DNA of 64,000 nt from Chara braunii. Lineage: Eukaryota; Plantae; Charophyceae. Shown here one piece after another: positions 3,255 to 63,928 of this stretch. The notes below the pieces were generated by a model that worked only from the letters and a program-made list of their open reading frames with translations, had not been told where the DNA came from and did no database searches. The DNA lies in contig BFEA01000031.1 of the NCBI GenBank assembly GCA_003427395.1, forward strand, positions 1,338,221-1,402,220, read 5' to 3'. Position 1 is the first letter of the stretch. Each line of letters starts with the position of its first letter. Made by a program: the position numbers and the translations under genes.

Positions 3255-3893
3255 CTAGTGTTGTGACCCACGCCCACAAACAATCTGAGATTGAGGCCTC
3301 GTGACAAAGAGCCACCAGAAGCCAGCAAGCTCTGAGCATGACCAGCCGAGGTACATGACACGAAAGTTAACCATAGAGCAAAACTCCTCCCACAATATAG
3401 GCAGCCCGTCCACTTAGAAGACTCCCCGTCTGAGGTAGGGATACTCGGTGGGCTCGGTCAGTGCCTCAATGTCGATCACTGCTGGAGAGATATACCTCTC
3501 TGCCAAGCCGATCATATCCAACCAACCCGTGCCATCTGTGAGGAGAGAAGGAACAGAAGGCTTGGGATAGTCGGTATAGAGCTTGGGTCCAAAACTGCGA
3601 ATCAGCGTTGTGCCGTTCTCATCGAACTCTCTCTCTCTCTGCTCCAGATACCCGGCTACCGAGATCCACACCGCGTCAAAATGATCGTGTGTCTCCTTGC
3701 CCTTTCTCAGGTAGGGCCTCGGGTCATGAATAGTACAGTCAGCAAAACTGGTCTGGACGACAAAGATTGACAGGTCTCCCTGTCTGAAACCGATGACACT
3801 GACGTAACGATAGCGAAAGGCCTCCTTGCAAGAGAGTCGATTAAGATTAGTTAGCACCGACTCACTCACGGAAAATGAGTGGACCGTACTCAT
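3255..3893 (-). pseudogene. LTR-embedded accessory ORF, family 1 (about 210 aa; premature stop at 3414)
   Basis: Homologous to 20107-20658; the frame continues past the stop (VDGLPILWEEFCSMVNFRVM) as in the other copy; synonymous excess between copies. Confidence 0.75.
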
Positions 3894-11104: not shown

Positions 11105-11991
11105 TTAACAGCTGTTTCGCTTTACATCATGCCTGAGGCACGCCATGAGCAGGGTTATACCAACTTTTCCTTGAACTCTTTGCTCTTCTATTCCCTTCTC
11201 GCTTGGAGCATCAAGCATCCTCTCATGGGTATAGGTTGCAGCAACTCTTACTTTAGCCGGCTCCCGACTCATTTTTCTTCTCTCTGCTCCACCTGTGATT
11301 TCGCCTGACGATCTCAGCGTCCTTTTCTTAGCATCAGTGGTGCCTACTGCAGGATCAGTTGACCCCTTTGCAAACTCACTCTTCTCACCATCCAAAGCCT
11401 TATTTCTTTTCCTCGCTTCTCGCAAGGTATGGCAGAGATACTGATTAAAATCCTTCTGTTCAAGGTTCTCTCGGATCTTATCCCATACTAGTCTCCCCTC
11501 TGTTCCACGAATCAACTCTCGTTGTTCTGCATTCGTGAAGTTCATCAGGAAGACAAAGCATTTGTCATGTTCTGACAGTGCCCAGACCTTACGCGATGCG
11601 CGCTCATACTCTGCTAGGAAGTGCCCCACTGACACATAACTATACCGATCTATTTTCTCAAGATCGTCTTTGGTCATTTGTTCCTCACCTAGCCGGTACT
11701 TATTCCACATGTCATCATAGAACTTCCTCCACGATGACCCTGCTCTTCTAACCAACCTATTTACTTCCTCCTTCAAACCTATATAGATATACTTTATCAC
11801 TTCTTTCAGCATTTGTTCCATGTTCCATTTGCAGTGGGACGCTATCGTTCAAACTTGTCGAGGAAGTTAGAGACATGATCGCCTTTGAAGAAGTTGATCT
11901 CAACCTTGGGCAGATTGTCTCGCTCCCAATCCCGTCGTTCCAACAGAGAAGCGAGTTCCTCGGCCTCAATCTTTCCTTGAGACCCCTCCAT
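11105..11991 (-). pseudogene. gag: gag (capsid-like) of element B, disrupted near 11840
   Basis: MEGSQGKIEAEELASLLERR...NLPKVEINFFKGDHV and KYRLGEEQMT...LSEHDKCFVFL align with element D gag (AAEIAKLLEKR...NLPRIDIFPFKGDRV; FKLGDGLLT...LSEEMQCVIFL). Confidence 0.75.
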
Positions 11992-12015
11992 CTCGAGCTC
12001 CCTCGACCCCTTCAC

Positions 12016-12042
12016 CTGTTGAACAACAACGAGCGGCGTTAG
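12016..12042 (-). promoter_or_regulatory. Putative branch point and 3' splice acceptor upstream of element B gag
   Basis: Minus strand ccCTAACgccgctcgttgttgttcaaCAG|G, 24 nt before the gag ATG. Confidence 0.55.
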
Positions 12043-14160
12043 GGTCGAGATTCGAGAGGAGCTACGTGACTAAATCAAATATAAGACATATCCCACCAAG
12101 TTACTTCGGCACTTCATTGTAAAAATACGCACAAGAATCTATCCAAAACAAAGACAATACTGAAGAGAGTCCTTAAATGAATATCCATCAAAAATAAAAC
12201 ACAAACAGTTACTAATAAATCCCTCCAATTACAACTCAGACGTTATCCACTTATGACTGTCATTATCAAGGCAAGGCGTGATGCACATATGCCGCATAGG
12301 TGGATACTCCAAACACAAATACAAAATGCAGCACAACCCATGATAAATGGCATATACTGATAACAAAATTTTTTACATGACAATACAATTTATCCATAAG
12401 GGTTGTAACTGACGGGCACAATATGCTTTATAAACAACCATATGAACGCAACCCAACTGCCAGTTACATAACAAGATAACCCTCGATAATGTATTTCCGT
12501 ATTCTATAAGGCAGAAGTAGGACTGATAATGAGTAAATAACATGATACAATTGTTACCCCTTCAACTCTTTAAGCGAAGCGTATATTATAGAGGGGCGGT
12601 GTAATCCTGATAAGATAATATCTCGACTCTTGAGCCCCGCTCTAAATATGAAGCCTCACCGCATGTCTCTCCGACTCTAGCGCTTGTACCTCACTGCCCC
12701 TATCATGGTCAAGTGGACAACCCAATTCATACTTATCAAGGCAACGAGGAGCGAACTCGCACCTTTACAAATATGGTGGCCCTGCCTAGCCAGAGACGAG
12801 TTTAGGTCGCTACCCCAGATCCGCTCTCACTAAGCAGTGGCTATTTCACCTGGTCATCACACGTAACAAGTCCTTTCCTCTTTTCTCAACAGATAATGTA
12901 GTTACTGTCCCATTTCAGGAGAGACAACAACACCCCACTAATGGACCAGGAACATAGTTCCGGCGTGGGTCTCACTATCAGCTTCGAGACTAATAACCGC
13001 TTCCTTAAGCCTCATCGAGGGAGTAACAACTCAAGAATGCACTTCCACTGAGGACAAATTATACACGCCGACTAACTCCTTCTCGGAAGAACCACCTTTC
13101 CCAGAAGCAAGTCACCCCATTCACCCCTGGTCCCATGCCAGACGTGAGTTTCATGCAGAATGTATGTCCTCGTGGAAGGCAGTCCATATATACGCCATCA
13201 ATCTGACATCGGGCAAAACACAATGACAACATATATACAGAGATAACCAACCAAACAATCACAAATGTCATATATACATATATTACATATAATTAACACA
13301 TAGGCCTCTCTTCGGACTAGCCAAACCGCGATCCTAGTGACCACTACTTCTCGAGATTTATCGATAGTTAGCCAGACAGTCCGCAAGCGACTCAAATCAT
13401 CACCAACTCACACTATCGAGGAGTCTAAGCATCGTACAGGCCGTAGTACCTATCATATCACATCTCAATCTAGGTTCAAGAAAATAGTTTTACAATTAAA
13501 CTCCTCACTTCGCACTTTATCAGTCATCTCCTCACCCATGTTGTTCCCGTGTCAACAACATTCTTTAAAGCAGAGGTCATATAACTAGGGGAGACGCTCC
13601 ATCTTAACTTCATTATCTTCCACGACAGGCTTTGCACAACAATCACGTAATGAGCCGATTAGCCTTGAATTCCAATAAAAGGCATACTTAGCAATGTCAG
13701 TACCACCTTGCTCATTCCTAGCCGAATCGACCCTACAAGGCATTACCCAAACTCATCAATCATTAAAGTCAAAGAGTCTTTCAACTCCAGTTAATCGCAT
13801 ACTAGGCGGTGCTCACGGCGCATAGTCAAGGCGCTTATCGATCTCAAGCAACCCTTACTACATCACTCAAACCCCACTTGCAGAACTAACCCTCACTTCA
13901 TGCTCTATCCAATACATTATACGATCAACCACTTTCTCCTAACCCAGTCAATAGAGCAGAAGCGGTTATTCTCCGCGGATTATCAGCCTGCCTCGAGTCA
14001 AGGCTCGACTTTTAGAGACCTCTCAGTCTTTACGATACCTCCAACGATAGTCAAAATATTAGTCAATCGCTCATATAAGTCTATCAAAACTTCTCATTTG
14101 CCAATTTCTCACTTCCATACCCGGATGTCATTCCACCAGGGACAACGGTAGGCAGCCGTT

Positions 14161-14179
14161 ATCCCCAGCAAAGGCGCCA
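14161..14179 (-). promoter_or_regulatory. Primer-binding site (tRNA-Asp-like), element B
   Basis: ...ctcgaCA-gg-TGGCGCCTTTGCTGGGGAT. Confidence 0.75.
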
Positions 14180-14181
14180 CC

Positions 14182-15137
14182 TGTCGAGCTCATCAGTCCG
14201 GCACCGCACGTGGCAACGTGGGACCCTTTCGGCCGCGTCACGCAGAAGTTGGACCAACCTCGTCCCGAACACAGAAATGGAGCTTCCTTAGGCCGCCCCG
14301 GCCGAGTGCGCCAGCCATACCTCTCGCGAACCCCTACGACAGGATAGGGCCTACGCGAGGCACAACTTACCTCCACCTTACGGAAGCTGTCACCTCCCTT
14401 CGGTGGGCGTATCCCCGCCGAGCTACCAGTCCACAGTACGAAAGCTAATCAGTTGCAATCGCAGAGGTGGACCAGCCGATGGCGTTTCTCGTTCGCTGTA
14501 GCATAGGGGGTACGCGCGGTAGTACGCCTCTATCGGACCCGCACGCGAACCGGCATCTTGGGGGGCTGAGGTCCCAAGCGCGGTTCGTCGCCAGTCGACT
14601 AGGATGCATCCCACACACCACGTGCACACCACTTTACGAACACAAAAAATAAAGCACACATACGCACTCATACGAAACGACACAACACAAACAACGCGAC
14701 AACGCTCCTAGCCCCTCGGTAGCCATCCTATAACTTTCCGATGCGAAAATCGGATAAGCGTCGCGCGCGAGACTTGATATAAAACCACGCGGACGCAGGG
14801 CTAAGCCATATCGACTCGCAATGCAAACGTACGCAAGTAGTCGCAATGATGGCGTACTATGTAGTGCGCATAATCGTGCGATCCTCGTTAGTCTCGAGGG
14901 TCGCATTCGACACTCAAGTGTCGGCTGACACGCGCCTTGAGGGTTAATATCTTGACGCTGGACAACCGTCGTACACGGTTGAGCACCACACACCCTCTTC
15001 TACACCCTGTGCAGAGTGGGTGGTACACAGGTCTATACCTGTGGCGGCAGCCGTTCCTTACTGCCCTGGGGATGAGTCCCACTCCAGGCCTGAGCGAACG
15101 TTAAGGGGTTTGACTTTGACGGCTGCCACGGACTACA
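14182..15137 (-). repeat. 5' LTR of element B (3' end firm; far boundary uncertain, may extend to 19521 or beyond)
   Basis: Terminal CA abuts the PBS; shares an about 115-nt block with the LTR of element D; candidate TGTAG start at 15137. Confidence 0.5.
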
Positions 15138-15899
15138 ACGTCCAACTATAAAAATTAACAAGCAAGATCAATAAATAAATAAATAAGCATCCCAATACTC
15201 ATACATTAGGTCAAGACTCGAGGTAACAACCAAAAGGAGGGGGAAACTTAAACCCATCAGGTATGCAGATCGTGCGACGCATGGTTGTCATTCTGACTGC
15301 CTCCAAAATATGGCTCATGTCCCAAGCTCCAAAATACTAACCTGCATGAAACACAGACACACACAATAGTCACATTGTCATACACCAATGTAGTCAACTT
15401 TACTGTTCCCTGTAACTCACACCATGCCTCACGCACTCAAGCCCCAGTCATGGTCAAAATCTTCATAAATCCCACAAATTCTTTATAATGGTCATTAAAA
15501 TGAAGTCCAGTTAAAACCTTCAAAGGAACATATCAAGTCTCAGGGCTAAGGCAATCAAATTGAGGTACAGGTATGAGCAAGTTGTGTCGTGAGCCGACAA
15601 GTCGGCGATCAACCAACCGACTTGTTATCATTGATAGCAGAATATGATCCTCGCGAGATCAAGCTGAACTAGTCCAAATCCCGAATCAAGCGGTCTAGAG
15701 GAACTGTAACACAAGACAGGTCAATTCCCAAGCTAGACCTATAAGTCCATGGGGAGTAATCCTCATATCCCGATATCACTCAAATCATCCTAATTGACTA
15801 AGCCTGAATCTACCTTCAAGCAGTGCCCAAAGCAAAGGTAGACCTTGGCATAATCCCCCCTATACAGAGTGGATCACCAAAATCGCCACCTGTCAAAAT

Positions 15900-16480
15900 A
15901 TAATCTATCTCCTTTAAACTAAGAAAATTTTGGCAGCGCTTCCCGTAGGAAAAATGTCTTTTCAAAATTTATATACGCTCAAATATGAAAACAGAAATAA
16001 TCTCTAACTCAAGAAAGTCAAATTTCATCTAACTTCCTGAATTAGTAAAATTTTGGGCAGCACTCCTTTTAGAAAATGAGACTTCCCAGATTTATACTAT
16101 CTCAGATTTGAACTTAGAATAACTCGAGTTTTTGTCAAGACAAAATTTAACAACTTCTTAGATTTGTAGAAATTTCGGCAGTACTTCCTCTAAAAAAGTG
16201 TTATTCCAAAACTTATACAAGGCTAAGCCCATAATTTGAAACTAACTTTGACTTCTCAAAGTCCAATTTTGTCTAACTCCCTGAATTAGCAAAATTTTGG
16301 GCAGCACTTCCTTAAGAAAATGAGACTTTCCAGATTTTTACTAAGTCAGATATAAAGAAAAGACAAGTTGAACTTTGACAAGTCAAAAATTGACTAACTC
16401 CTTGGATTTGTAGAAATTCCGGCGGCGCTTCCTATAGAGAAAGTAGCTTGCCAAAATTTATACAAAGCCAAGTATAAAAG
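15900..16480. repeat. Tandem repeat, about 122-bp unit (about 5 copies, alternating units more alike)
   Basis: Recurring ttt(g)ggcagc(a/g)cttcc...aaa...tttata motif near 15925, 16050, 16175, 16295 and 16415. Confidence 0.7.
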
Positions 16481-19400: not shown

Positions 19401-20106
19401 CCAACCGACTCGTACCGCATCCAAACCCCAACTTTGCATCTTTGTTCGTCGAAAACGGTCAAGAAACGACCGATCAAACAAGGTTTCACACCCATCTTCT
19501 TCCCTCTCCGCCATCTCGCGCTATCGCACTTTTTTCAGTCGGGCCTACTTCGGGCGACCGGAAAGCCAACAGGCTGTCACGCAGGATTTTTGTAAGTGAT
19601 TGCAATAAATAAAATAAATTAAATAATGCAAATCCCTTCCTGTTGTGTCCGTCCGGCTTCGAGCGAGACCCTTCAATTGCGGTCTTCGTCGGTCCCTGGT
19701 CTTAAGAATCTTTTATTTTGATTCGGAACAGCAGAGAATTATGTAAATAATAATCATAAAATTATGGGGTGCTATTCATGCATCAATTATGTCAATCTGA
19801 TCTTGAGAACTGTGACAAAACATCCACGAAGGCAATCATCGAGCAAGAATAATGCAGAAAATAAGACTGACTGACTCGAGCAAAGACAAGGGCAATTGAA
19901 TGAGCGAAGAATGGAAACTCATAATAATCTCAGAATGTAAACGAGCATGGTCAGCACCCCTCAAGAGTCCTCACTCATCCCTCTGGTCAGTCTCTCTCAA
20001 TTTCTTTTCACTGATCTTCCCTGGTGCTGAGACCCACGCTCGCGTACAGTCCGAGACTGAGGCTTCATGACAAAATGCCACCTGTAGCCAGCAACTCTGA
20101 GCACGA

Positions 20107-20658
20107 CTATCCGAGGCACATGACACGGTAGTTAACCATGGAGCAAAACTCCTCCCATAAGGTAGGCAGTCCGTCCATCGAAAAAACTCCTCGTCTGAGG
20201 TAAGGATACTCGGTGGGCTCAGTCAATGCCTCGACGTCGATCACCGCCGAAGAGATGTATCTCTTTGCCAAGCTAACCACATCCAGCCAACTCGTGCCAT
20301 AAGTGAGAAGAGAAGGGACCGGAGGCCTAGGATAGTCAGTATAAAGCGCCGGCCCGAAGCTGCGGATCAACGTAGTACTACTCTCATCGAGCTCCCTCTC
20401 TCTCTGCTCAAGATAGTTGGTGGTTGAGATCTAGACCGGATCGAAAAGTTCATGAGCCTCCTTGCCCTTCTTCAGATAAGGCCTCAGATCGTGAATAGTG
20501 TCATCAGCAAAACTGGTCTGGACAACGAAGATTGACAGATCTCCCTGTCTGAAACCAACGACACTAACATATCGATAATGAAATGCCTCTTTGCATGAGA
20601 TCCGATTGAGGTTGGCCAACACTGACTCACTGACCGGCGTAGGCTGAACTGTGCTCAT
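20107..20658 (-). pseudogene. LTR-embedded accessory ORF, family 1 (in-frame stops at 20431 and 20107)
   Basis: Close homolog of 3255-3893 (LNRISCKEAFHYRYVSVVGFRQGDLSIFVVQTSFAD; RSFGPALYTDYPRPPVPSLL). Confidence 0.75.
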
Positions 20659-47128: not shown

Positions 47129-49859
47129 GACAGGAGCTTTACCTTTATTTTACCTAGGTTTGAACGGCCGGGACTCGATCCCGCGACCTCTCTATCTGGG
47201 TTAGTTGTGTTGGTTGCCTCGTTGAAACGAGACACCACGTTAGGCAGTTAGTAGTAGTTCTCGTTTGAATTCGTTCATTTTATTTTATTTTATTTTGTTG
47301 ATTAATTCCTTTACCCGTAGCTTCTATTTCCCTGATTCACGCAAGGGAATCTGCACCCGGAAGACGGGCTGATGCAGCCGGAGAAAGGAAGAAGCCCGGC
47401 CAGCCTACCGTACGGCATCAGCCTATAGCACGAAGAGCCCCTCGTCAAGGAAAGAGCAGGCCGCAGCAAGATCGTGCGCGCAGAGCAAGATCGGAGATCG
47501 GCCGCGCAATAGCCAGAGGGAGCGCAGGGGGGCGAGGAAGGCAGAACGCGAGAAAGACGAGGAGAGAGCACTCGTAAGGAAGTAGAAGGAGGAGAAAAGT
47601 AAGAAGGAGGAGGAAGTAAGAGGAGAAAGAGAAGGGGAAAGGGTTCGTCGTGACAAGGATAGANTGTTGTAACTATCGATCTTGAACGACGAAAGCCTAG
47701 TAAGCGCGAGTCATCAGCTCGCGCTGATCACNTCCCTGCCCTTAGTACACTCCGNCGTCGCTCCTACGATTGAGGGGGGGGGGCGGTGAAGTGTCTGGAT
47801 TGAGGCGATCTCGGCAGTCTGCCGCCAGGGTGAAGTTCGTGAGGCTTTATTACGTAGAAGAAGAAGAAGAAGAAGAAGAAAAAAAAAAAAAAAAAGAAGA
47901 AGAAGAGGGAAAAGGGGGAGAAGGAAGCAAGACAACGACAGCGCGAAGGAGAAGAAGAAGAGGGAGAAGAAGAGGAAGGAGGAAGGAGAGAGAGAGCAAG
48001 GAGGGGAAGACATACCTTCCTCACAGACGTCGACGAACGGGCTGACTTCGACGACGGCTCGACGACGACGAGGAGCGAGATAGAAAACAGGTAAGTCGTC
48101 AATATTGTGGCTTACCTCGTAATACATCAATATGATAAAACAAAATAAAAATAAATAAATAAATCAATAAATAAATAAATAAATAAATATATAAATAAAT
48201 AAAATAAGAAAATCAAATGAATCTACCGCTATGACACGAATACATACATTACTACACTATACGTATGTGTATGTGTACATGAGTGTGTGTGTATAAATGT
48301 GTGTGAGACAGAGAGAGAGAGAGTTCTCCTTCTTCCTCTTCTTAGTCCACCATCTTTTTCTCACCCTCTCGCCAGCTGACTTCTCGGTGTCAGCAGACTA
48401 CGACAGAGAGAGAGAAGATTGGAGATTTGAGACTTGACGACATTGGATCCAGACTTGACATGGGATACAGACGTTTTGACGAGGGACTATTTGGGCCTGC
48501 GCCGAAGACTTGGTGTTGACGACATTCCCATCTTCGCCTCTTCTACGTCTAACCTCCCTCTTCCTCGTCTGGGTATGGTCGGGGCTGGCGCAGTCTTCGT
48601 GCGTAAGGCGCCGGACCCCTTTTCACCATGGAATGATGATGATGATGTATGATCGGGGCTGCATTGCAATATTAATTGTTCGGATCACTGATATCTACGT
48701 CTTCCGCTATGTTATCTCGTACCTGTACGAGGGGTCGGCTCTAGTTCTAGTCAGCACCTTTATAGTATACAACCGTGTGTGTGAGAGTTTGAGTGTGCGG
48801 GCGCTCGTATGTGTATGTGTATGGGGGAGAGAGATCGGAGAGGGAAAGAGGAGGAGGAGAGAAAGGGGGACGATAAGTCTCCAACCTTGGCCAACAGCCA
48901 ACTCTCAAGCCATGACTCGCCACGCGCTACCTAGATCGATAGAATGAGCAAATCAAAAAGTGGCAGTGCATATTGCCACATTTCAGCAGAAGATTCATTC
49001 CGTTTTTGCTCATCCTATCGATGGAATGCTTGTGTGTGTGTGTGTGTGCGTCCGTGAGTACGTGGGCACGCGTGCATGCGCGAGAAATGTGTGTGTGAGA
49101 GAGAAAGAAAGTGGAGAGAAAGAGAAGAGAGAGAGAGATTGGGCGGAGGCCAGAGGTGCTTACCTGTAGCGCCATTGCTCCAGCTTCGTCTTCAAGGTAC
49201 CTGCAACACACGCCGAGGTCTCAGGTTAGTACCTGGCTCGAAACACAGAGAGAGACAGGGACCTGGACCATCAACTAAGTCTCTACCCCACGGCTCGTCG
49301 CACGCTACTTGGATCGATAGGACGAGCTAATCAAAAGGGTGACAATGTATATTTCCACGTCTCAGCGGAAGGTTCATTCCGTTTTTGCTCATCCTATCGA
49401 TGGAGTGTGCGTGTGTGTGTGTGTGTGTGATAGAGAGAAAGAGAGAGTTCTCTCCTTCCCCTCTAAGTCCACTATCTCTCCCTCGCACTCTCGCTACCCA
49501 ACCTTGGCTATCAGCTAAAGTCTTGAACAGCGGCTCGCCGCGAGCTACTTGGACCGATAGAACGAGCAAACCAAGAAGTGGCAGTGTATGTTTCCCCGTT
49601 TCAGCGGAAGATTCGTTCCGGTTTTGCTCGTCCTATCGGTGGAATGTGTGTGTATGTGAGACCTTCATGATTCGATCAAGAAGAGAGCGAGAGATCGAGG
49701 AGAGAAAGGGAAAGAGAGAGAAGGCAGAAGGAGAAGGAAAGCTTACCGGTCAACACTGCTTCCGTGCGTTTCCCTCTGAAGGGGAACGCACGACCTTGCA
49801 GCATGTACCTGGCCGAAAAGGTGGCCTGTATAAATCCGGTTTGTATTAGTATTAGTACG

Positions 49860-49871
49860 ATTATTATGATG

Positions 49872-49912
<41 letters not shown>

Positions 49913-49962
49913 GATCATTATTATTATTATTATTATTACTACTATCATTTATCATTACTATT
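49860..49962. repeat. (ATT)n microsatellite
   Basis: Visible trinucleotide run. Confidence 0.95.
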
Positions 49963-50811
49963 ATTTTAAATCCAATATACAAACGAAATGGCAGAGAGAG
50001 AGAGGAGATGAAAAGGGGGGGGAGAAGGGAGAAAAGAGAAGGGAGGCGAGGAAAATAGACCAAGATCGCAATAACAAAGTGATAAGTCCCTTGCCGAGTG
50101 TCCAAGCAATGTCTGTCCCAGAAAACGGGGCCGGATCGGATCTTGTTAAGTACGCCCAAGCATAACCGCTGCCTGAATTCTTGTTGTTAACCCTCAAGCT
50201 CTCACATTCGAAGAAAGGATAAGAGAGGGTGAGAGAGGAGGAAGAGAAAAGGAGATGGAGAAGGGAGAGGAGATCTAAGAAGGAGAGAAGGAGAAGAGAG
50301 AGAGGGGAAGAGAGGACGATATGATGATAATGAGAGTGTGTTGGGGCTGCACTGCAATATTGATCGTACGGATCCTTGGTATCTAAGTCTCCCGCTTCGC
50401 TGTTTGTGCTCTGTATGAGTGGTCGGTTCTTGTTCTAGTCTGCACCTTTACAGTAGCGACAGTGTGTATGTGTGCATGTAAAGGAGAGAGAGAGAGAGAA
50501 AGGGAGAAAGAAGGTGGTAGTGATGATGATGATGTGGGGGCACTTACCTGGCAGCAGCAATGGCCTACATAGGTGACATCTTCAGGTACTCTGGGCCGCC
50601 GCTAATAACGATAGTTGCATTGTCTCCTTGTAGTCTGTAGTAGGGAGTAGGCTGGGCACCGAGCGCCAGGTAGGGAGAATAGGGCCTGGATACTCATGTT
50701 GGTGGTGGCGAGAGCAAGCTCTCATTGACATTGGTTTTCAGAGTTACGAATCTCCATTGGTGTATTATCGGTGCAATGTTGCTTCTGGATACAGTCATCA
50801 CGCTGTTGTTA

Positions 50812-50915
<104 letters not shown>

Positions 50916-51583
50916 GATGTACGGCAGTTCTTGGGTCCAAGTGGCATCTGTGAGTTAGGGGATTGAGTTGTGAGCGAAGTGAGAGGCTCACCTGGTGCTT
51001 GACGTATGCGACATTGGCCGAGATATGCCCCTACTTCGGGAATGTTGTTGATGTCTTCTTTCGTCTTCATAAGTATAGGCTAGATAGGATTTGTCATCTG
51101 TAGTCTGCATGCCGAACGTCAGATAAGGTGTCGGCGTTGGGTCTGTAACGATGATAATGACGATGGGAAGATGATGATGATGATGGGAAGTTGATGATGA
51201 TGATGGGGAAGATGATGATGATGGGGTGATGATGATGATGATGGGTAGGCACATACCTTGTATTGGCGACAGTCTGCATCTGGGCGGCGTCCACGAGTGC
51301 TTCGGGTTGCCGCAGATGTCAACACTTGCTTTGTCTTTTGTAGTAGTAACTGAGTAGAAGTAGGCCGGGTGCTGTGCGGCGCGTAGGATAGATGGACTGG
51401 CCTCTTGTGTGGGTGTGGAGAAAGGAGACTCTCCATGAGCAGTAGTTCTCAATGCTACTAACCTCCATCGGTGTATCATTGGTGCAATACTGCTCTCTGG
51501 ACACAGTGTGACTATCCGGCTTTCTACGTGATGATGTAATCTGGAATTATCATTTTGTTGATTGCTTATTTCCCTGCAATTTG

Positions 51584-51639
51584 ATTATTATTATTATTAT
51601 TATTATTATCGTTATTATTATTATAATTGTTATTCTTAC

Positions 51640-51694
<55 letters not shown>
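51584..51694. repeat. (ATT)n microsatellite
   Basis: Visible trinucleotide run. Confidence 0.95.
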
Positions 51695-54600
51695 GCGATC
51701 AGAGTCGCTTTTATTCACCTTTTCCATGCACGCGAATAATAGCACAACAAAACTGGCAACATGCGCCTGCTCGAAATTCAGAGATATGGAAAACTAGGTA
51801 CCTGTTCACGTTTTTTTTAATGGCTATAGCGACTCAGCGCCCGAAAACAACTCTCTGTTCTCATACCCCAGATCACCCAGGAATACCACACACAACCTAT
51901 TGTACACACACACGCAGTACTCTCCGGGCATCTGCGGGCCACCGTCGCACCAATCGCGGTAACAGCGCTTCCGCATAGCTTATGCAGGGATGAATGAATG
52001 GCAAGGCGCAACATATTGATTTTACTACTATAGGGTACTGGCCTTTCCATCCGCCCTGAGAGTCCACAGTCCCATACGGTACTGACTTGACCGAACCATG
52101 GACTGACTGGGACTGTACTGTTGAGTGAATGGGGATGTGCCGCTGGCTCAGAGCAGTCATACCGCTAACCTACTGGATGGACTTACGGATCGACCCCTAC
52201 TTCTACATGGATCTACGACTTGCGGATAGACAGAGGGACTGACAGATGAACATACAAACAGACAACGACAAACAGGCGGGCACAGAGACATAGGCAGTTG
52301 AAAGACAGTGACACAATACCGCCCGGTGGAACACACACATACACATTGGAACAGATACAGGCACGGTGACAAACGCACAAAAAAAAGAGAATCCAATGTA
52401 TAGTGACACAGATACGCAACCGCACACTGTCACACTATGAACAGACACACATACACTGTGTCACGTACACATACAGATACACAGTGACAGACTTGATGTT
52501 GTCTCCTTAATTGTTTTTACTTCGGATTACCAAAGGTCTACCTTGGACCCCGAGCCTGGGATGCACACGCTCTCACGTGGTACTTGCTAAATTGACAAAG
52601 TGCATCAGGGACAGGGTACTGCTGACCGGGCCAGGTTAGACTCCCTCTTGCCACTTGCCTATAGGCTGCCCATTTGAGTGCGCAAAACGTTGCTTCCGGA
52701 TCTTACGGAAGACTATACACTTGACTTTCGGCGTTGTAGCAACCACAAATTATACTGCAGTCGAAACTCCTAAAGCACGGACGCTCGGTGAAAACACACC
52801 CAGACACAGTGAATACACAATGAAATAGACGAAGTCATGGCAACAGCCACGCAGCGTAATGTGCACAATGACAGGCACAACAAACACACAGTGTACAATC
52901 ACATGCCATGTGCAAAGTCCGCAATGAAAACGCATGCCACGCACAATACTCTACCTACAACTATAACGACTATAGTTGCCGCCATGCTGTTACTATGGAT
53001 GAGCTCCTCTCGGCCCACTGAGTCCTCCAGGCTCACTGCAGACCTCCTTGCACGACATGCTGAGACAACACTTTCGAATGGTTTCCGCATGAACGAATGA
53101 ATAACTGAGGCACTGCCTCTTAACTTATATTTCTGTAGGTCGTTGATCTGGTCCATTTCCCTGGCCCGAAGTGCACACAGTCCTGAACGGAACTTGCTGG
53201 ACCGGACTGGGACTGACTGAACCTTACCACTGACTAACTGTGGGCTCACTGCTAACCTGGGCACTTGCACTATAGATTAGTCCACCACCTAACTCGCCAC
53301 ATGACACTTGCCCACTTGCCTCTAATGAGCCCCGTCAGGCGTTTTTTTTTTTTTTTTGCAGTATGGCGGCCGCCCTAAGTGAAGGCAGGCGCGACAGGCG
53401 CTCAGGGCCTCGATTTCAGGGTACCCCGCAACTGGTGAAATTCAGACAGTTGCGCTGCGCCAGTTGGTTGAAGGCGCCCAGGCCCAGGCCATAAAATGCA
53501 AATGTATCTGAATGATGACCTGGGCCAGACGCGTGAAAAAGGCCGTGAGCAGGCCAAGGGCAGTTGGGCATATGCAACCATCAGGNCCTGGGCCTGCGTG
53601 TGAGGTCTGGGCCTGTGCCTACCGGGGCCTACCGGAAGCTTCCTGGACTGGANGCAGGCAGGCCACTTCGATATAGGGAAGGGCCTGCCTCCTCATTCGG
53701 CATTCAGGTGNTGGCTGCATNNTGCNCGAACGCTGATGCGCTATTTGCTGGNTGGCTGGCACTCGCGCTCTCACCGGCGAGCAAGAAGTAGCAGGCAGCC
53801 ATAGCCGAGCTGCTCCGCTGTGAGCTGGGTGTAACGCAGGGTGTTCTTTGGGTATGAGTGGCATCTGTGTAGTGAGGCGCGAGGCTGTAAGTGAAGGGAA
53901 ATATGAAGGATAACAAGGGAGAATGAGAATGTAGCATGAGAAACGTACCCGACACCTAACACAAACTACATTGGTTGAGATCTGCTCGTGGTAGAGAAGT
54001 TGTTGGTGTCAGCTAGGTACGATCTACCATACTTAGTCTAGGCACATGGGGCGCATTCACCTGCGCTGTCACACAAGGACTGTGACACGCCGTGGAGCAG
54101 TCATAACACCAACACACAGTCTCACGGGGACGCATACGCAAGTGACACGATACCGCACAGTGGAACACATACCTACACATCGGAACAAATACGGACACAG
54201 TGACAAACACACAGACAGAGAGTCACATGCCCGGTGACCCAGATACACAGCCGCACACGAATGTAGTGAAAACACAATCGCGCTGTGAAAAACAGACACT
54301 CGTACACTGTGTCACACACACACACAGATACATACCCGGGCGCCAACAAGCCTTGTGACCGCCCTAAGTGGAGGCGGGCCAGACCTATGACCGCCCTAAG
54401 TGAAGGCTGGTCAGGACATCTACGAACAGGGCCTTTTTCTTTCAACATTTTCATAAAGTGGGTATCGGACGTTTTGCAGCATTGACGTTGTAGGCCGATG
54501 GGAAAGCAGCATTGCCATCAATGAGGCTGGGCTGACAAAAGGGGAACCAGAAGATGGCCTGCATATGGATAGCGGCCCTGGCCCAAAAGGCGCAACTATG

Positions 54601-55580
54601 CAGAGAATGCGAGTGGGCAAGGGTCGTGGCCAATGCGGGCATTGCTGGCACGCTGAGCAAAGGCAAGCTGCAGCGCTGTGCATGGCTGCGCTGCGCTGGG
54701 ATGAGGCAGGCTAGCGCTAAGTTGTAGGGCGCTGCCTACACACACAGGAACTCTAGAGACCATAGTCGGGCCGCATGAGGGTGCAGTGGAAGTGAGGGAC
54801 GAGGATGGTTCTTCGGAGGTGAAGGGCGCTGCGTGAGTCATCAAGGAAGAGTACGGGTGAAAAGAGGACGTACCTGGTAGAGAGGGACTCGACAGTGATA
54901 TTGGCGTCTTCACTTACTGATCGTCATATTGTCTGATTGCTTCCCTGTTATAGCTGTAGTAATGGATTGTGGAGTAAAGGAGGCATCGGGCGCCATTTCG
55001 GAGAAAGAACTACGTTGAGTTATGCTGTTAGGTACTGCCCGATTGGGCTTGGACATTGACTCAAGATTCTGCTGTTTTCATTCTCAAATGGATGTTTACT
55101 CAGTTCCCTTGTGCTGTCTACTCTTTCTTTGACAACTTGGACATTAATGTGATTCTCCGATTTGGATTCTGTGCTTCGTCCGCATTCATATCCCTTGCAT
55201 TTTATATTTATTGTTATTATTATTATTATCATTATTTTATTATTATTATCATTATTTTCATTCACTCTTCTCGTACACAAGAACAACAGCTCACGCAGAC
55301 TGTGGTACACAATAGTACGAAAAGAAGGAGACATACATACAGCAAAGGAGGCAAAGAGAGAAAAAAAGAAGAGACTGTAGGTAAAAGTTGTGGAGTGCAA
55401 GGTTGGGGCATTGGGGTTGACATGTGCCTGAGAACTTGAGTTTTGGCTCACTACTACATTATATTGCTCTGTCTAGCTGAATGTGCAGAGCTATGATACT
55501 CGTTGCTTATATATAACTACTCAAACGACCGTGTGATCTCGCAACCCGGGTTTTTATATCGTTCGTTTTCATAATTTTTG

Positions 55581-55795: not shown

Positions 55796-56047
55796 ATATC
55801 GTCAGGACCACGTACTAGAATAAGGAAAATCAGAATCGGACAGAGGGGTGCGAGGCAATAGAGAGAATTTCGGGCGCCAGCAAGTATGACGACTCTTACA
55901 TCCTTCGTCCTCCTTCGCTTTCCTATGCCTAAACCGTACATCAGCACATAACCGCTTCCAATCAACATAAGTGAAAATTGTATGTTCCAATGGCTTGCTG
56001 AGATCACGGTGCATGTACAAAGGATTCTCATTCCATATTTTGATCAA

Positions 56048-58262
56048 TGTAACAGGGCGATTACGGGAGCTCTGCCGGAGTTCAGGAGGAACTCTGGAGG
56101 CAGGGAACGACGAGGTACGTTACTTCGACCCAGATGCTGTCTCATACAGGCAATCATCGTGACAATGATCACAAGGCTTAGGGATTTGAAATCAATAACT
56201 CTTCAGGTCTTGGATAAGAGAAAAGTTTGGCTGAGTGTGAAACTGATTGTTTCTGGATACAGCAATCTTGCTGTGGACGCTGATTGGAGGAAAGGATACA
56301 AACTATCATACCTCTCGTGATCATCTTCTCTATATCCCATCCAAATAGACGATGGGTACCTTGATTTGAGTTGTTATAATCAACTGTCATACATCACGTC
56401 GATCATCTTGCTCATTATACATTTGATCCAGCAATAAGTCTCCAAACTAACAACGATTCTAGGCTCAGATATCATCGAAAAGCGATGACTTGAGCCGCAG
56501 ATAAGACTTGTATGCGGTAAGAATAGTAGGGAAATTCTGCCTTAACTCCAAGTGAGCCTTACGCTTGGTCAGTGGTAAGTGCAAGGATCCTTGGATACCT
56601 TCCTTATTGAGGGCTAGCCACTGTTAAGAGTAACAGGGAAATCATGTCTTATCAGTAAATAGTCTGATATAAGAGTTGTGAGGTTTCAAGAACACCTGCC
56701 TATTCACTGATTAAAACCTAACATTCTTTTCAGTGGTAAGAGTAGTAAGGATCCTTGAACACCTGCCTTATTGAGGGTTATCCACTGTTAAGAGTAGCAG
56801 GGGAATCTTGTCTTATCAGCGACTAGTCTTACATAAGAGTTGTGAGGTTTCAAGGACACCTGCCCTATCACTGATCAAACCTAACATTCTTTTTAATAGT
56901 AAGAGTAAGCAAGGATCCTTGGGCACCTGTCTTATTGAGGGCTAGCCACTGATAAGAGTAGCAGGGGAATCTTGTCTTATCAGCGACTAATCTGACATAA
57001 GAGTTGTGAGGTTTCAAGGACACTTGCCTTATCAGTGATCAAACCTAACATTCATTAAGGGGTAAGAATAGTAAGGATCCTTGGACACCCGTCTTATTGA
57101 GGGCTAGCCAGTGATAAGAGTTGCAGGGGAATCCTGTCTTATCAGTGACTAGTCTGATATAAGAGTAGCGAGGTTTCAAGGACACCTGCCTTATCAATAA
57201 ACATCCTAGCGCTTAGTCAGTGATAAAAATAACAAGGATCCTTGGACACCCGCCTTATTGAGGGTTAGTCAGTGATAAGAGTAGCAGGGGAATCCTGTCT
57301 TATCAGTGACTAATCTGATATAAGAAGTAGTGAGGTTTCAAGGACACCTGCCTTATCAGTGGATAGCCATAGGATAAGCCTACCGCTAAATGTTCTTAGC
57401 ACACAGGGGCCAAGACCCACTGAGTTGCCTTTGTCAAACAAAGCTCCAATAAAAGATGGAGATGTCCGGAATGATCTGCCATACCGCCGCTAACTTTCTC
57501 CGCAATCTGCATTTGTTCAGTCATAACTAAGTGCCTCTGATTCTACTAAGAAAGGCTAAGTGAGATCTTGCTTCGGAAAGAGACCATCCATTTGTTTGAT
57601 TCCTTCCATAAGAAACCTTTCCACAGGTTGGATTGGTGATATGTTCATGAGTGTTGTGGGAAGGAAGGGAATTCAGACGAGATAATCACAAGGGGAATAG
57701 TAAGGTGAAATGTGGAGAGTTAGTACGACAATAAAAGGGGAAGTGAACTATTGTTCACTACCTGAAGCGGAATGGGCAACAACCCAAAACAATTAGTTAA
57801 GGATAGAAGCCAGACAAAAGATACAGAGTCTAGAAGGAACTTTGTAGATCTCAGTTAGGAAGAGAGATGTTAAGATTCTCTTGGACTGTGTTGTGTCTAC
57901 AGGTTCCGATACTTCGGAGAACTTACGGGGAATCCGTAAGGGCAGCAATTCTGTTATCTCTGGATAACAGGTCGGTAGAACTCCGACTCACCTTCCACCC
58001 TTGGCTTGACACCCACACCTGGGTCAGTAGCTCAGCAGGGATACGCCCATCGAAGGGATGGTGACAGCTCCCGCAGGTGGAGGTATGTTGTACCTCGCGG
58101 GATCCCTAACCTGTCGTAGGGAGTCGCGAGAGGTATAACACGCGCGCACGGTCGAAGTTGGTATTTCATAAAGTGACAAAAAGAAAACTCCTGTGTGACA
58201 CGACCGTGAGGTCCGACACAAAACTACTTTGCGTCTAGGTTGTGGGACCGCCGCGCGTGACA
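56048..58262 (+). repeat. 5' LTR of element D (start TGTAAC inferred)
   Basis: Ends ...GTGACA before the PBS; TGTAAC/GTGACA imperfect terminal inverted repeat. Confidence 0.6.
56570..57360 (+). repeat. Tandem array, five units of about 162 bp, inside LTR D
   Basis: aaggatccttg...ttattgaggg...gtcttatcag...gaggtttcaag recurs near 56570, 56731, 56895, 57059 and 57218. Confidence 0.9.
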
Positions 58263-58264
58263 GG

Positions 58265-58283
58265 TGGTGCCGTTGCCGGGGAT
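58265..58283 (+). promoter_or_regulatory. Primer-binding site (tRNA-Asp), element D
   Basis: CA-gg-TGGTGCCGTTGCCGGGGAT. Confidence 0.88.
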
Positions 58284-58482
58284 CTCGCTTCTAGCCGAGG
58301 TCCTTAGTGAACGAACTCGGGTAAAGCAAAATCTAGGCAGAACGACAATTATTGAAGATTCGGTAATTAACTAAGACTCTAATAGCTGGTGACGAGTAGT
58401 TACTCCAAGTAAATCGGTGAGTAAAATAGGGACTAAATACACATAAATACGATTGCCCTACTTATACTAGGAGTTAGTGAAT

Positions 58483-58902
58483 ATGGCACCTAAGGGGCGT
58501 GGGACAGGAACTGGTAGAGGAAGAGGCGGCAAACAGGGGAAGGTGCCTGAGAGGCCTATGGACTTGACTAAAGATAGGGAAGAGTGGAAGGAAGATGATG
58601 AAGGACTAGAAGAAAAGGACGAAGGGTTAAGGGCGAGACGATATCGGGAGGGGAGGCGCATGCATACCCCAAACCCTGATGAGATGGCTTACTATTCGTA
58701 TAGGTACGCAAGGCGTTACGGAGAATCTCCGCCACGCTTCGAGCTGCCTGATCGCTCGCATCATAGCCCTTACCCACCGTCTCAAGAGAGGCAGCTGGCC
58801 GTCCTTCCCACGCCTCACCAACAAGGACCCCGCGGGTGGGTTAATAACATACTTGCTGTACAAAAAAATTATATAAAGGTTCAAAAGGATCAAAGGAGAT
58901 AA
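58483..58902 (+). CDS. Element D accessory ORF1 (139 aa; basic, GRG-rich N-terminus), unknown
   Basis: MAPKGRGTGTGRGRGGK...; preceded by cctacttatacTAG|G. Confidence 0.55.
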   Translation: MAPKGRGTGTGRGRGGKQGKVPERPMDLTKDREEWKEDDEGLEEKDEGLRARRYREGRRMHTPNPDEMAYYSYRYARRYGESPPRFELPDRSHHSPYPPSQERQLAVLPTPHQQGPRGWVNNILAVQKNYIKVQKDQRR

Positions 58903-59007
58903 TGGGGAATCGGTCAGATCTTAGGATTATAAGTCTACTAGCTAAAATAAAAGAGATGTGGGCTGGATTGTGTTGTGTGGTAGGTGGAGTATACCAAAGA
59001 AAAGAAG

Positions 59008-59713
59008 ATGGTTTCTGCCCATTATCAAGTCACGATCAGAGAGCCCGTGCAAATGAGGCGTGGCCTGATGATGAATCTGCCAAGTCGTCATGAGGAGAAC
59101 GAAAAGACGGGGTATTGGGGGATTACTATAGAGGAACAAACTTTCATTTGGATCGAGTCTGGATGGGTTAGAGGCAAAAAATCGCGCAGTAGAAAGGGTT
59201 ACCGTATATCTTTCTGTGGAGAAATTGCAAACTATCATAATAAATATAGTCTTAGGAACTGATCGATCTCTTTCCAGACTATTGCGGATAGCTGAATCCG
59301 CGCTCAAGTCTAGGGGAAGAGATGCAAGTTTGAATGGGTTTGAAGCAATGATAGGAACTGTGAGGGTAAGAAAGGCTAGCGAATTTCTTCCGCCAGCAGC
59401 ATATATAAGAGGAACCCTTCCTATGTTCATCGTAGATGCAACCTTCGGAGGGAGGACCAAAGTAGAAAGGGCTGTGGAAGCCGCTATGGCAGTACCTGAG
59501 AGGGAATGTCACGCATCTACCCCTCTCCTGATATACTACGTGTACTTAGAAATAGGGCATTTAATTGCAGAAAGGGATCCGCAAAGCATACTATCTCGGG
59601 TTGACTTATATGCACGTCAACACGATTGGGGAAATAGGCATGTTTACTGGGAGGAACTGAAGCAGGAGATCATAGATCAAATAAGAAGAAATGCTCAAGG
59701 AAGGCTGAGATAG
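59008..59713 (+). pseudogene. Element D accessory ORF, family 3 (frameshift near 59190)
   Basis: FIWIESGW...VTVYLS...IVLG...SEF...TLPMF...VERAV; paralog of 59796-60574. Confidence 0.65.
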
Positions 59714-59795
59714 AAAATTATTGAGAGATGGGAAATCGAGTGGTTACTAAGAAAAGAAAGGTTCTTTCTTTGACTGTTGTAACAGGAATACCAGG

Positions 59796-60574
59796 ATGGC
59801 TCCTTTAATGTGGTTTGCTGATCGGAGTTTTCTGATCAACCTGCCCGAGCCAAAGGAAGGAGGAGTTAAGATGACGCTGCCGAAGAGAACGATAGATCTG
59901 GATGAAGAAATGGACTCATGGTGTGGGATACCAATAGGACCAGAAGCCTTCCTTTGGATAGAAACCGGGTGGACCGCGAGGGAAAGACAGGCAATAGTAA
60001 AGGTGACGCTTTATTTACCGGTCCTTCTCTGGAGGGCACACGCGATCGATCTTGCGATAGGAGAAAGCTGCCCCGTCTCTAGATACGTGTTGATAGCTGG
60101 AATGGTCCTTGAAGCATTTTCAAGAATAATGTATTGGGGAGAAGAAGGAGAAGTTATAAAATCAATCGAAGCAAAGTGAGCTGCTGAATTCGTATATCCA
60201 ACAAGGTATATTAAAACCACGCTTCCGAGCTTCATAATTGATGAAGCATTTTGGGGGATTGAGAATGTAGAACGGGCAGTACTCGCAGCCCGATCTGTTC
60301 CAGAGATGGGTTTCGAATTGAGGCTTCGGAAGTTGTTTACCGTCTATACTTAGAGATGGGACCGAAACTAAATAATAGGGATTTTTATAACATACTATGC
60401 GTGATAAACACGTATCTACGCATCTACCGTTTGGAAGATCTCTCGACCTACTGGCGCAATCTTTGCAGGGAGGCATGTATAGAAGAATTTATAGATGAGA
60501 TCTCTTCTTTATTTGGTATGGTTAGAAGCTTTTGGCATGGGGACTGGGTGCCCCTAGAAGAGATACTCGGATGA
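59796..60574 (+). pseudogene. Element D accessory ORF, family 3 (stop at 60179, frameshift near 60350)
   Basis: FLWIETGW...VKVTLYL...LAIG...AEF...TLPSF...VERAV. Confidence 0.65.
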
Positions 60575-60712
60575 GAGAAAAGAGGTATGAAAGGTCATAT
60601 AGCGTAAAAAGTTACGTCAAGATAGTGACAAAGAGGGTGGATCAATGGTCGTTTTGTGTGTCTTAACAGGGTCTACGGTTTAGCAGGAACCAAAAAAGAA
60701 AAAGGGAAAGAG

Positions 60713-63700
60713 ATGGGTAAAGTCAGCGCCAATGGAGATCCGCCAATCACCGCGGCGGAAATCGCCAAGTTGCTGGAGAAGAGGACGATAAAAAGATCTA
60801 ACCTACCAAGGATAGACATCTTCCCATTCAAAGGGGATAGGGTGACGCATTGGTTGGAACTACTCAAGTAGATATTCAACCAACTGACCCCAGCCGAGAA
60901 GTTTGCCCAATTGTTCGAATATGTATGGTGGGAATGCACCTCTGACGTGGAAGAGGTAGTAAAAAAGTCCAACAATTATTGGGCTGAGTTTAAGAGGGGC
61001 ATCCAGTAGACATTTAAGCTAGGAGATGGCCTGCTCACAATTGACCATCTCTATAACATGAACAGAGATGACTTCACCACGATCAGGGCATTCGACAATA
61101 CATTCGAAAAGACAGCCGAGAGGGTCCCGGGGCTGTCTGAAGAAATGCAGTGCGTCATTTTCCTAGGGAAATTCTCTGGGTACGAGGCAATGTAACTAAC
61201 TCGAGGAGGAGCCGCTGGGAGAAAGAAAACCTGGGATACCATCAAAAGAAATATCACGGCAGGAGACATGGACCAAGTGTTCCATCACCAAATCAAGGTC
61301 GAACGAAAGAAGAGAAAGGCAGTAGGGACGCTTCAAGGAATGGATAGTATACTTGGAGGAATGTTGAGCAATATGGCAAATGAGATAAAAGAGCTTAGGG
61401 AAAGAGTGACCCCGTCGAAAGTGTTAACAGTGACACAACCATCAGGAAAGAGGAGGAAGGAAGAGGGAGAAGGAGAGAAAGAAGTTGAAGAAGGGGAACC
61501 CGAAGGAACGGGCAAACTGACCAAGAATCATAGGAAAGCTAAAAATATCGCTATCAGAGGACAAGGCTCAGGAAAATGACAAGTTACTCAACAGGCGATA
61601 GTCCAGAATGGACATGAGCCATTAACAAGCACGGCGCAATATGGTCAATGGCCCGTGGGTCCGCCTATGGGAGCATGGCCTGGGTACTTCCCGATAGGGT
61701 CATGGCCTACGCAGGGTCCATATCCCATGTTACCCCAGAATCAGAATTTGGGAGGAGACCAAAACATGGGACAACTTCAACTAACAGGGCAAAACCAACC
61801 AGGATCGAGTCGCCAGGGTGGCCAAAACCAGAACAAGTCCCAAGGGCAAGGACAAGGACAAGGACGTGGAAGAGGTAGGAATGCTGGTAGGAATCAGGGA
61901 CCAGGGGAACGAGGAGCAGGAAATAGAGGAAGTGGGTANCAAGGTGGAAACTGGGGACAGTTCCAAGGGGGTGCGAATCCGGTAGGGCAAGAATACCNGC
62001 AGGGGTATGNTCGTGGTTACGACCAAGGCTATGGAAGGGGGTTTGGTAGAGGAAATGGGTCATGGAACGGACAGGGTTTTGGCAGAGGATGGATAGACTA
62101 CAGCGAATGCGTTTGTACCCACTGTGGAATCAAAGGGCACATAGTAAAGCGATGCCACGTCAGGAAACTTGACGAGCGCGATGGACTTATAACATCCAAC
62201 ATAGATGGCAAGGTGTTTGACAGAACAGGAAAGCTGATCGATCCTGAGATTCCGGGAGGCACTAGAGAAGAGGCCCTTCGCATAGCCGCGCTAGGTTCCA
62301 ACGCGCCGGGGATGTTCAGAATGTGGCAAGAAAAGGAAGGACCAGTCGTACGGGTGGAAGATGTAACTGAACTAGAAGAAAAACTGAGCCGAATGGGGAT
62401 CGAAGGAAGCAAGGAAGACGTACCCCTTGTGGAAGAAGAAGCAGAAGAGGATGACGTTAGGATTACCATCAGGGACACATTTGATAAGATGGAGGATCTG
62501 GTGAATAAAATGCAAAGGCTGCATTTGAGACTTCAAGGGATATGTGAAGAAGCGGGGAAAGAAGGGGTTGGGTGCCCGAAAGTATTTACCATGGGACGTG
62601 GAGGATCAGAAGATGGGCCAAATGAGCCCAACCCAAGAATGTTGAGGGCCAACATGGCCGCAAAGAACAGTGGGGGTCAAAGAAGCGTAAGAGGAACGAT
62701 TCCGTTCGGTACAAGAAGACCCGCAGGAGAAAATCCTCAAAAGGAACAAGCCCAGGCTTCCCAGCCAGCAGAAGAAGAACCACCTATCACNGTAGAGGGT
62801 GATGAGGATGAGGATGAGAAGATTAGGGAGGAAGAAGAAAGGCAGGCGGAGATAAGGGCTAAGAGAAGGAAAGGCGAAGCTAAGGAAGGGAGATCAAAAG
62901 GGGATACGGGACCAAGCAAGAAGAGAAAGTACTAAACCTCGATCGAAGAAGAGGTGGATCTGGAAGGCCTGGTGAATAAACTGCTGGAAGGGCACAATGA
63001 ACTATTAAACCTGAAAGAAATCCTCGCTTCAGCTCCTAAGTTAAGAGAGATGGTGAAGGCTAGGTTATCACGCCGGAGAGTAGCCTCGGTCCGGATGGAG
63101 GATTTGATTCCCAAAGAGGCAAACTGGAGCGTGGCAGGGAGTAAAATGGACTGGAAATTCGTAGGCACAGGGTCCATTGATGTTATGATAAAAGGAAAGA
63201 TGTGTCCTGGGATGGTTGATACCGGGGCAGAAATGAATATTGTAAATGGAGAAACCGCGGTAAAATTAGGGTTGGAGGTGGATCAGAATGATTGCGGGTT
63301 TCTCAACGGAGCCAGCGGCAAGACCGGATACACCGGTGTCGCATCAAATGTGGTCATAGAAATAGGAAGAGTCAAGGTACGTACGTGCTTCTACGTTATG
63401 CCCAGCTTGGACCTTCCAATATTGCTGGGAAGGTCATTCCTGTGCAGATCTGAATCACTCATTATGAACAAGCATGACGGCACTATGTTTGTCATCTTGT
63501 GCGATCCTTCCTGTGGGAACTTCGAGGTTATCACCTGTAGGAACACAGACCCACACAACTCGAAGAACAGGCTCAATGCAGGATCTTACACGTTCGAGGA
63601 ATCTGAGAATAGGAGGAGAGAATTGGAATGGGAAGAAGAAGAAGAGGAATCAGATGATGAAGAAGCCAAAGGACTTGTATTAAGTCTAACGAATATCAGT

Positions 63701-63928
63701 GACGCAGTGGAACTGGTATCGGCTTATAGGATGGCTGATCCAGATGCAGTCAGGGCACTCGCAGAAAGGATCCAAGATGATCCAGAAGGGGGAAGAGTCG
63801 ATCTCGTTTACCGGCCACCTCCTTCTACTCAGATGATAGTGCCGCATGCGCCGAATGCTCAAGCTGCCGGCCAGCATTTTTTAGGGGTGGGCTCAAGCAG
63901 GGCTCCAAAAGGAGGTACAAGACGGTAG
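60713..63928 (+). pseudogene. gag: gag-protease of element D with several in-frame stops
   Basis: IFPFKGDRVTHWL capsid motif; CTHCGIKGHIVKRC zinc knuckle; GMVDTGAE and ILLGRSFL protease motifs. Confidence 0.9.
63877..63883 (+). promoter_or_regulatory. Putative -1 ribosomal frameshift heptamer U-UUU-UUA
   Basis: Correctly phased at the end of gag-PR; the -1 frame reads KRRYKTVDKKSHPV, similar to KKHKTMAEKVKP that precedes RT in element C. Confidence 0.7.

Follow-up and report, generated by a model that had tools for sequence, protein, structure and literature searches.

Organization of element D

A stretch of 64,000 nucleotides from the charophyte alga Chara braunii (contig BFEA01000031.1 of assembly GCA_003427395.1, positions 1,338,221 to 1,402,220; hereafter the window) contains four nested long terminal repeat (LTR) elements, one on the forward strand (D) and three on the reverse strand (C, B, and A), all with similar primer-binding sites (PBSs). 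The present analysis concerns element D, which is a decayed Ty3/gypsy LTR retrotransposon, likely, to judge from its sequence, of C. braunii, with three extra open reading frames (ORF1, ORF2, and ORF3) between the PBS and gag. Each of these frames, like gag itself, is preceded by a site resembling a 3' splice acceptor (Table 1). An initial annotation of the window had proposed that one upstream donor is joined to these acceptors in turn, giving a separate mRNA for every gene; the ORFs that it described are fragments of the three D genes treated here.

The Ty3/gypsy assignment draws on the LTR followed by a tRNA primer-binding site in D, with matching sites in A, B, and C, and on the gene order gag-protease-reverse transcriptase (RT)-ribonuclease H (RNase H)-integrase, which is complete in C and of which D shows gag-like and protease sequence up to the window end. 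D gag is homologous to B gag (E = 9e-20) and, weakly and via B, to C gag, and all seven homologues of the D protease region are named Chara braunii. The D copy is decayed, with three in-frame stops within the first 288 codons of gag, so any mechanism concerns an active ancestor or relatives. Non-coding gaps of 105, 82, and 138 nt lie before ORF2, ORF3, and gag, respectively. The ORF1 protein has a basic Arg/Gly-rich start, an acidic stretch, and an Arg-rich motif, while ORF2 and ORF3 are diverged paralogues (E = 2e-12 and 2e-5 between their pieces), ORF3 being supported also by tblastn with family members.

Table 1. Features of elements D and B, and primer-binding sites of C and A, in window coordinates (a slash marks the predicted cut in a motif)
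Feature	Position	Strand	Remarks
D 5' LTR	55800..58262 (start approximate)	+	ends TGACA just ahead of the PBS; 84-85% identical to copy L001
Tandem array in D LTR	56580-57379	+	164-bp unit, five copies; also in L001
Acceptor-like site inside D LTR	57878..57902	+	TG-rich tract, CAG/G; score 12.5; no ORF after it
Candidate common donor, GAG/GTATGT	58080..58137 (GT at 58083)	+	long hairpin next to it on the 3' side; segment common to several LTR families
D PBS	58265..58282	+	follows LTR end at 58262
Alternative donor candidate, TCG/GTGAGT	58414..58422 (GT at 58417)	+	only 54 nt from the ORF1 acceptor
Acceptor-like site before ORF1	58457..58470	+	weakest of the four, C-rich; rank 20/72 in leave-out model
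ORF1	58483..58902	+	139 aa, open frame; no Pfam family
Acceptor-like site before ORF2	58968..58983	+	T-rich, YAG/G
ORF2	59008..59713	+	one frameshift near 59130-59165; belongs to a protein family of Chara braunii
Acceptor-like site before ORF3	59762..59785	+	T-rich, YAG/G
ORF3	59796..60574	+	ORF2 paralogue; stop at 60177, frameshift near 60310
Acceptor-like site before gag	60652..60669	+	strongest of the region; top of 220 AGs; rank 1/72, tied
D gag and protease region	60713..63928	+	decayed; continues past window end; aspartic protease Pfam matches
B acceptor-like site before gag	12016..12042	-	with CTAAC; 25 nt ahead of gag ATG at 11991
B acceptor-like site in LTR	15342..15366	-	joint top score across 11070-15900
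B LTR donor-like site, GAG/GTAAGT	14365..14373 (GT at 14370)	-	position matches the D candidate donor
B PBS	14179	-	
C PBS	38980	-	
A PBS	2745	-	

Acceptor-like sites ahead of the D genes

Each of the four sites is a T-rich tract ending in YAG/G, with the G of the AG at 58470, 58983, 59785, and 60669, and the first ATG past each site is the start of ORF1 (58483), ORF2 (59008), ORF3 (59796), or gag (60713), at distances of 13, 25, 11, and 44 nt with no intervening ATG. All four start codons stand in a strong context (purine at -3, G at +4). The four motifs of the initial annotation, one per accessory ORF and one for gag, were thus recovered to the exact base, and their placement exceeds chance: a site occurs within 60 nt of all four gene starts as compared with 7 of 120 other ATGs (Fisher p = 3.5e-5), with p spanning 1e-5 to 3e-3 over 15 settings (five scoring variants by three distances). 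The individual sites also exceeded shuffles of their gaps, whether mononucleotides (p = 0.031 for ORF1, 0.004 for ORF2, 0.005 for ORF3, and 0.0006 for gag) or dinucleotides (p = 0.039, 0.008, 0.019, and 0.001, respectively) were permuted.

In a second model, whose composition was learnt from four other sites and by which 72 YAGs were ranked, the gag site came first, ORF2 third, and ORF3 fourth, with ORF1 only 20th. The antisense strand of the D gaps scores alike (9.5-13.5); because the gaps are A-rich this control is uninformative, and the signal is the placement of T-rich islands on an A-rich sense strand rather than an exceptional score. The pattern in D is real, comprising three strong sites and one weak one, and the paralogues ORF2 and ORF3, though diverged, each retain an acceptor-like site.

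Upstream start codons and candidate donors

From ORF1 to gag, D contains 46 ATGs against 46.8 expected, and the 2.1-kb leader of element B contains 55 against 58.1, so that neither is depleted; with this many ATGs ahead of gag, scanning from a cap in the LTR could not plausibly reach it. Element B has no extra ORFs, and its acceptor-like site at 12016 closes this ORF-poor, T-rich leader. The B motif had also been put forward in the initial annotation, and the sequence is indeed there, with CAG/G at 12016 and CTAAC 23 nt upstream, although taken alone it is not significant against shuffles (p = 0.07-0.12).

A candidate for the common donor lies in the LTR. The D and B LTRs have in common a 130-nt segment (82% identical) holding a donor-like motif and a hairpin, with fold z-scores of -2.3 in D (58020-58155) and -2.0 in B. 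The D LTR pattern matched two loci in metagenome contigs (L001 and L002), and the motif GAG/GTAWGT is found in the LTRs of D, B, L001, and L002, as GTATGT in the latter two; among X2 reads (see below) over the D donor, 52 of 59 have A at 58086, that is, GTAAGT. Contigs of other families in three runs match B only from 14372 downward, which is the AG of the donor motif. The motif is thus conserved, making it a candidate splice donor. A weaker donor after the PBS, at 58321, was set aside since it reads GTTTGG in L001 and is not conserved.

The shared segment (58027-58154 on the forward strand, 14299-14426 on the reverse strand, L001 1748-1886, and L002 4121-4255) is common to many unlike LTR families, attracts most RNA reads, and has no Rfam match, nor was any Rfam family found elsewhere in the window. 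It could be a packaging, dimerisation, or U1-binding signal. The donor-like motif itself could instead be a U1-binding site serving a role other than splicing, as in retroviruses.

Acceptor-like sites also occur within LTRs, at 57902 (+), at 15342 and 15146 (-), at 631, 916, and 1283 in L001, and at 3062 in L002. For the D site, 24 of 25 upstream bases are the same in L001, and these sites suggest non-coding leader exons. Neither L001 nor L002 extends far beyond the LTR, if at all, so neither supplied the four acceptors a second time, and the D gag query gave no loci in the metagenome contigs. About 700 bp of the L001 LTR (L001 1054-1748) are missing from the D LTR.

RNA alignments and gene models

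Reads and contigs of several runs, among them X2, X4, and X7, were aligned to D from 57400 to 61930, using 6-13% of each raw run, and to B from 11070 to 15900. On B, where 3466 reads and 270 contigs aligned, a 1863-nt contig from X4 stops aligning at 12016, the G of the gag acceptor AG, leaving 246 letters loose, and a 186-nt contig from X7 likewise stops there with 29 loose letters; an 856-nt contig from X7 stops at 15342, the G of the LTR acceptor AG, with 27 loose letters. Among the matches listed (20 piece rows), two of seven distinct sense-5' loose ends fall on top-scoring sites (P about 0.001), a count that excludes ends at the edge of the stretch, internal gaps seen in one contig, and ends with fewer than 19 loose letters. 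The matches overlap the site by one base, stopping at the G rather than at the AG, so the upstream exon would end in something other than AG and would not derive from the LTR donor; no piece of the 1863-nt contig matched the B LTR.

Gene models from related copies point in the same direction. Two C. braunii models, GBG80086.1 and GBG78665.1, exit their ORF2/ORF3 homologue at different residues, yet in both the gag-like part begins 3-4 residues ahead of the same Met, a junction that suggests a predicted acceptor just before gag in these other copies as well.

The ORF2/ORF3 protein family

The ORF2/ORF3 family (59008-60574; P0009-P0019) comprises proteins of about 230 aa with a predicted beta-sheet plus helical fold and was detected in no models other than those of C. 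braunii. The homologues described here came from a HMMER search, word-based protein searches with either ORF having given none: all ten of the D ORF2 homologues looked up are named Chara braunii, and an eleventh match, a repeat protein, appears unrelated. Half of the ten models with the family also hold gag-like sequence matching D gag, so the family is a regular component of such elements. Pfam returned no family for the pieces of D ORF1-3 or for any of the 13 members of the alignment A2, and specifically no Athila ORF-1, plant mobile domain, or Transposase_28 in the D extra ORFs. Against viral and PDB libraries, the predicted fold of the family (pLDDT, the predicted local distance difference test, 69; pTM, the predicted template modelling score, 0.62) gave no Foldseek match at E<=0.001. 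In the accessory-protein alignment, no stretch was conserved enough to serve a locus search.

Neighbouring elements

Element C, whose two LTRs are 95-96% identical, is young. Ahead of its gag (37388-32216, reverse strand) lie about ten extra ORFs that overlap stop to start or stand only a few bases apart. ATGs are depleted there (33 vs 53 expected, p = 0.002, with 13 regions tested), and between 37032 and 33126 eight of the 17 ATGs are ORF starts. The C array looks polycistronic and may be read by leaky scanning or reinitiation. A lone, very strong acceptor-like site occurs at 38690, just past the C PBS. No env-like ORF was noticed past the C integrase, and a scan of the C pol pieces gave no second RNase H family, such an additional domain being a trait of the Tat clade of Ogre, Retand, and TatI-III (the RT of D lies beyond the window). 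The predicted fold of one C ORF was poor (pLDDT 49). Homology between D and C extra ORFs was plausible in an alignment and was rejected, blastp giving none at E<0.01.

Element A (2414-1, reverse strand) carries a tandem series of paralogous extra ORFs in which stops and starts abut at 1526, 520, and 226, and its ATGs are not depleted. By blastp, this family has no match to the C or D extra ORFs. The initial annotation had placed a further ORF-start acceptor in A at about 1165; an AG does occur there, but it falls within coding sequence homologous to the C-terminal end of the paralogous ORF just before it (E = 2e-5), and the next ATG opens only 25 codons, so this part of the proposal was not confirmed. 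In the shuffle test, none of the eight A starts and none of the ten C starts reached p<0.05.

A second A-type LTR piece (84% identical; 19524-20634 and 2752-3869, reverse strand) adjoins the C 3' LTR and thus marks a nested insertion, and the B LTR contains a 244-bp two-copy repeat at 15925-16472. On the reverse strand from 47400 to 55000, several short exon-like pieces with good donors and acceptors lie among TTA microsatellites, with repeated flanks (48881-49658); this region may be a host gene or else a non-LTR element. The putative host gene was considered for training acceptors but is unvalidated and was left out.

Proposed mechanism and alternatives

We favour the reading, at a probability of roughly 0.6, that each extra ORF and gag of D was expressed from its own spliced mRNA off a shared 5' exon, with unspliced RNA serving as the genome. 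The 5' leader exon would be joined to the acceptor-like site just ahead of each start codon, the spliceosome using all four sites and the donor being either the conserved LTR site (58083) or one in the leader, for example that at 58417. The ratio of the proteins would be set by which acceptor is chosen. Because a splice from the LTR donor would delete the primer-binding site, unspliced RNA would have to be retained as the genome, and Gag would be made from spliced rather than packaged RNA. Element B likely bypasses its ATG-rich leader of 2.1 kb in the same way. The alternative splicing put forward in the initial annotation is supported in part for D and B, if indirectly, through the non-random sites, undepleted ATGs, conserved donor-like motif, and B contig ends, its single upstream donor being putative, and it is not supported for A.

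Several points weigh against this reading. The pattern of acceptors before ORFs is not general, since A and C lack it and have packed ORFs. The acceptor score is untrained and was composed once the sites had been seen; the ORF1 site is weak (rank 20/72); none of the four D sites has a CTRAY or TTRAY branch-like word 15-60 nt ahead of it; and similar sites with no following ORF are present at 57902 and, inside ORF3, at 60525. The RNA nature of runs X2, X4, and X7 is only guessed. On D, coverage amounted to 4, 222, and 15 reads plus 11 contigs, with one read at least 99% alike and a depth over the ORFs of about 0-2, and the absence of any junction at such almost negligible depth neither supports nor refutes splicing. 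The junctions that the initial annotation had called for at these AGs were thus not seen, at a coverage too low for D to decide the matter, and among the joints listed for B none of 13 was canonical. The contig ends at 12016 and 15342 are known by position only, and the two contigs at 12016 share variants and so may represent one copy. Moreover, 41 X2 reads stop at another predicted acceptor (15146), where the overhanging letters resemble, on visual inspection, a diverged T-rich tract that is unspliced and has no AG, and among the ends listed none falls at the B LTR donor, at which X2 depth is near 300. Finally, GBG80086.1 and GBG78665.1 are themselves predictions, judged from protein only with the DNA unseen.

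A more elaborate version, which we regard as tentative and rather doubtful as a whole, is an inverted complex-retrovirus programme: the LTR donor would be joined to the acceptors of the three accessory genes and gag, the genome would never be the Gag message, and ORF1 would act as a Rev/CERV-like exporter, while C and A would use ATG-poor stop-start arrays of up to about ten ORFs. Export of unspliced RNA by the basic, Arg-rich ORF1 protein, in the manner of CERV, is speculation.

Compared with the favoured reading, it is much less probable that the sites are used only in part, gag (and perhaps ORF2 and ORF3) being spliced and ORF1 being read from unspliced RNA or from RNA spliced within the LTR only. 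The low rank of the ORF1 site agrees with such partial use, as do the 200 nt free of ATGs between the PBS and ORF1, across which scanning could reach ORF1, and the fact that the indirect signs from RNA and gene models touch gag and LTR sites only; however, the ORF1 site still exceeds its gap shuffles (p = 0.03-0.04) and has the same YAG/G form and spacing as the others.

Preferred over two further, improbable accounts is splicing to all four sites. In one, the sites arise by chance or from composition, and ribosomes read the ORFs from a single long RNA through leaky scanning, reinitiation, or internal entry, as appears to happen in C with its ATG depletion and abutting ORFs; the untrained, post hoc score, the occurrence of such a site at about 6% of other ATGs, and the equally high antisense scores would fit, but D has undepleted ATGs and spaced rather than abutting ORFs, and the placement of four sites at four starts survives all five scoring variants (p at most 3e-3). 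In the other, the T/G-rich islands are internal promoter parts or 3'-end signals and each ORF is its own small transcription unit, which suits the use of separate genes by many transposon families (PMC13547354), and the D sites with neither branch-like words nor a junction, but leaves unexplained the invariant YAG/G at the end of each tract, gaps of just 82-138 nt, and B contigs that stop at the AG itself.

These layouts matter in several respects. One window contrasts a splice-based layout (D and B) with a scanning-based one (C), and it brings to light a family of accessory proteins for which no sequence or fold match is known. If the proposed mechanism is true, a streptophyte alga would provide a case of retrovirus-like alternative splicing in which Gag is made separately from the RNA that is packaged, and one would then ask how the unspliced genome is exported and selected.

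Comparison with known systems

Extra 5' ORFs are common in plant gypsy elements and form a known class there (PMC6317226, PMC6431247). The plant OTA non-chromoviruses (Athila, Bagy-2, Ogre, and Retand) have long LTRs, tandem arrays, and extra ORFs that include a 5' forward class (PMC6317226). The literature covered does not explain the translation of gag downstream of such ORFs, and D offers base-exact candidate donors and acceptors as a testable answer. No architecture in which gag and several ORFs 5' of it each have a separate acceptor was found there, in Chara or elsewhere, the search having missed the C. braunii genome paper, the Ogre splicing paper, and supplements.

Splicing itself has precedents among LTR retrotransposons. 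In ATHILA and Bagy-2, a spliced subgenomic RNA serves an env-like extra ORF (PMC7197481; PMC7264820); that ORF lies 3' of pol, whereas the extra ORFs of D lie 5' of gag and have no Pfam match. In the Ty1/copia elements EVADE and BARE1, Gag is made from a spliced subgenomic RNA (PMC12786077, PMC7197481), the splice removing downstream gag-pol sequence and setting the Gag:Pol ratio, whereas the splice in D would remove upstream genes and expose the gag start. Within Ty3/gypsy, Cer1 of C. elegans makes its accessory protein CERV from a spliced mRNA, and in several species consensus acceptors stand ahead of the ATG predicted to initiate it (PMC10309623). CERV has exons in common with gag and draws on a 3' ORF, unlike the three separate 5' ORFs of D, each with its own site.

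A further parallel is with complex retroviruses, a group that includes HIV-1 and HTLV-1 as well as foamy viruses and walleye dermal sarcoma virus. In their scheme, one 5' exon is joined to alternative acceptors and unspliced RNA is the genome, with Gag and Pol made from unspliced RNA (PMC10309623). D would resemble them in having one mRNA per accessory gene and an unspliced genome, and would differ in that its extra genes lie upstream of gag and the part inside the window holds no env, in that gag itself would be read from spliced RNA, and in that the best candidate for its donor sits in the LTR, ahead of the PBS. By this analogy, we infer that D works like complex-retrovirus splicing while not being classed as a retrovirus.

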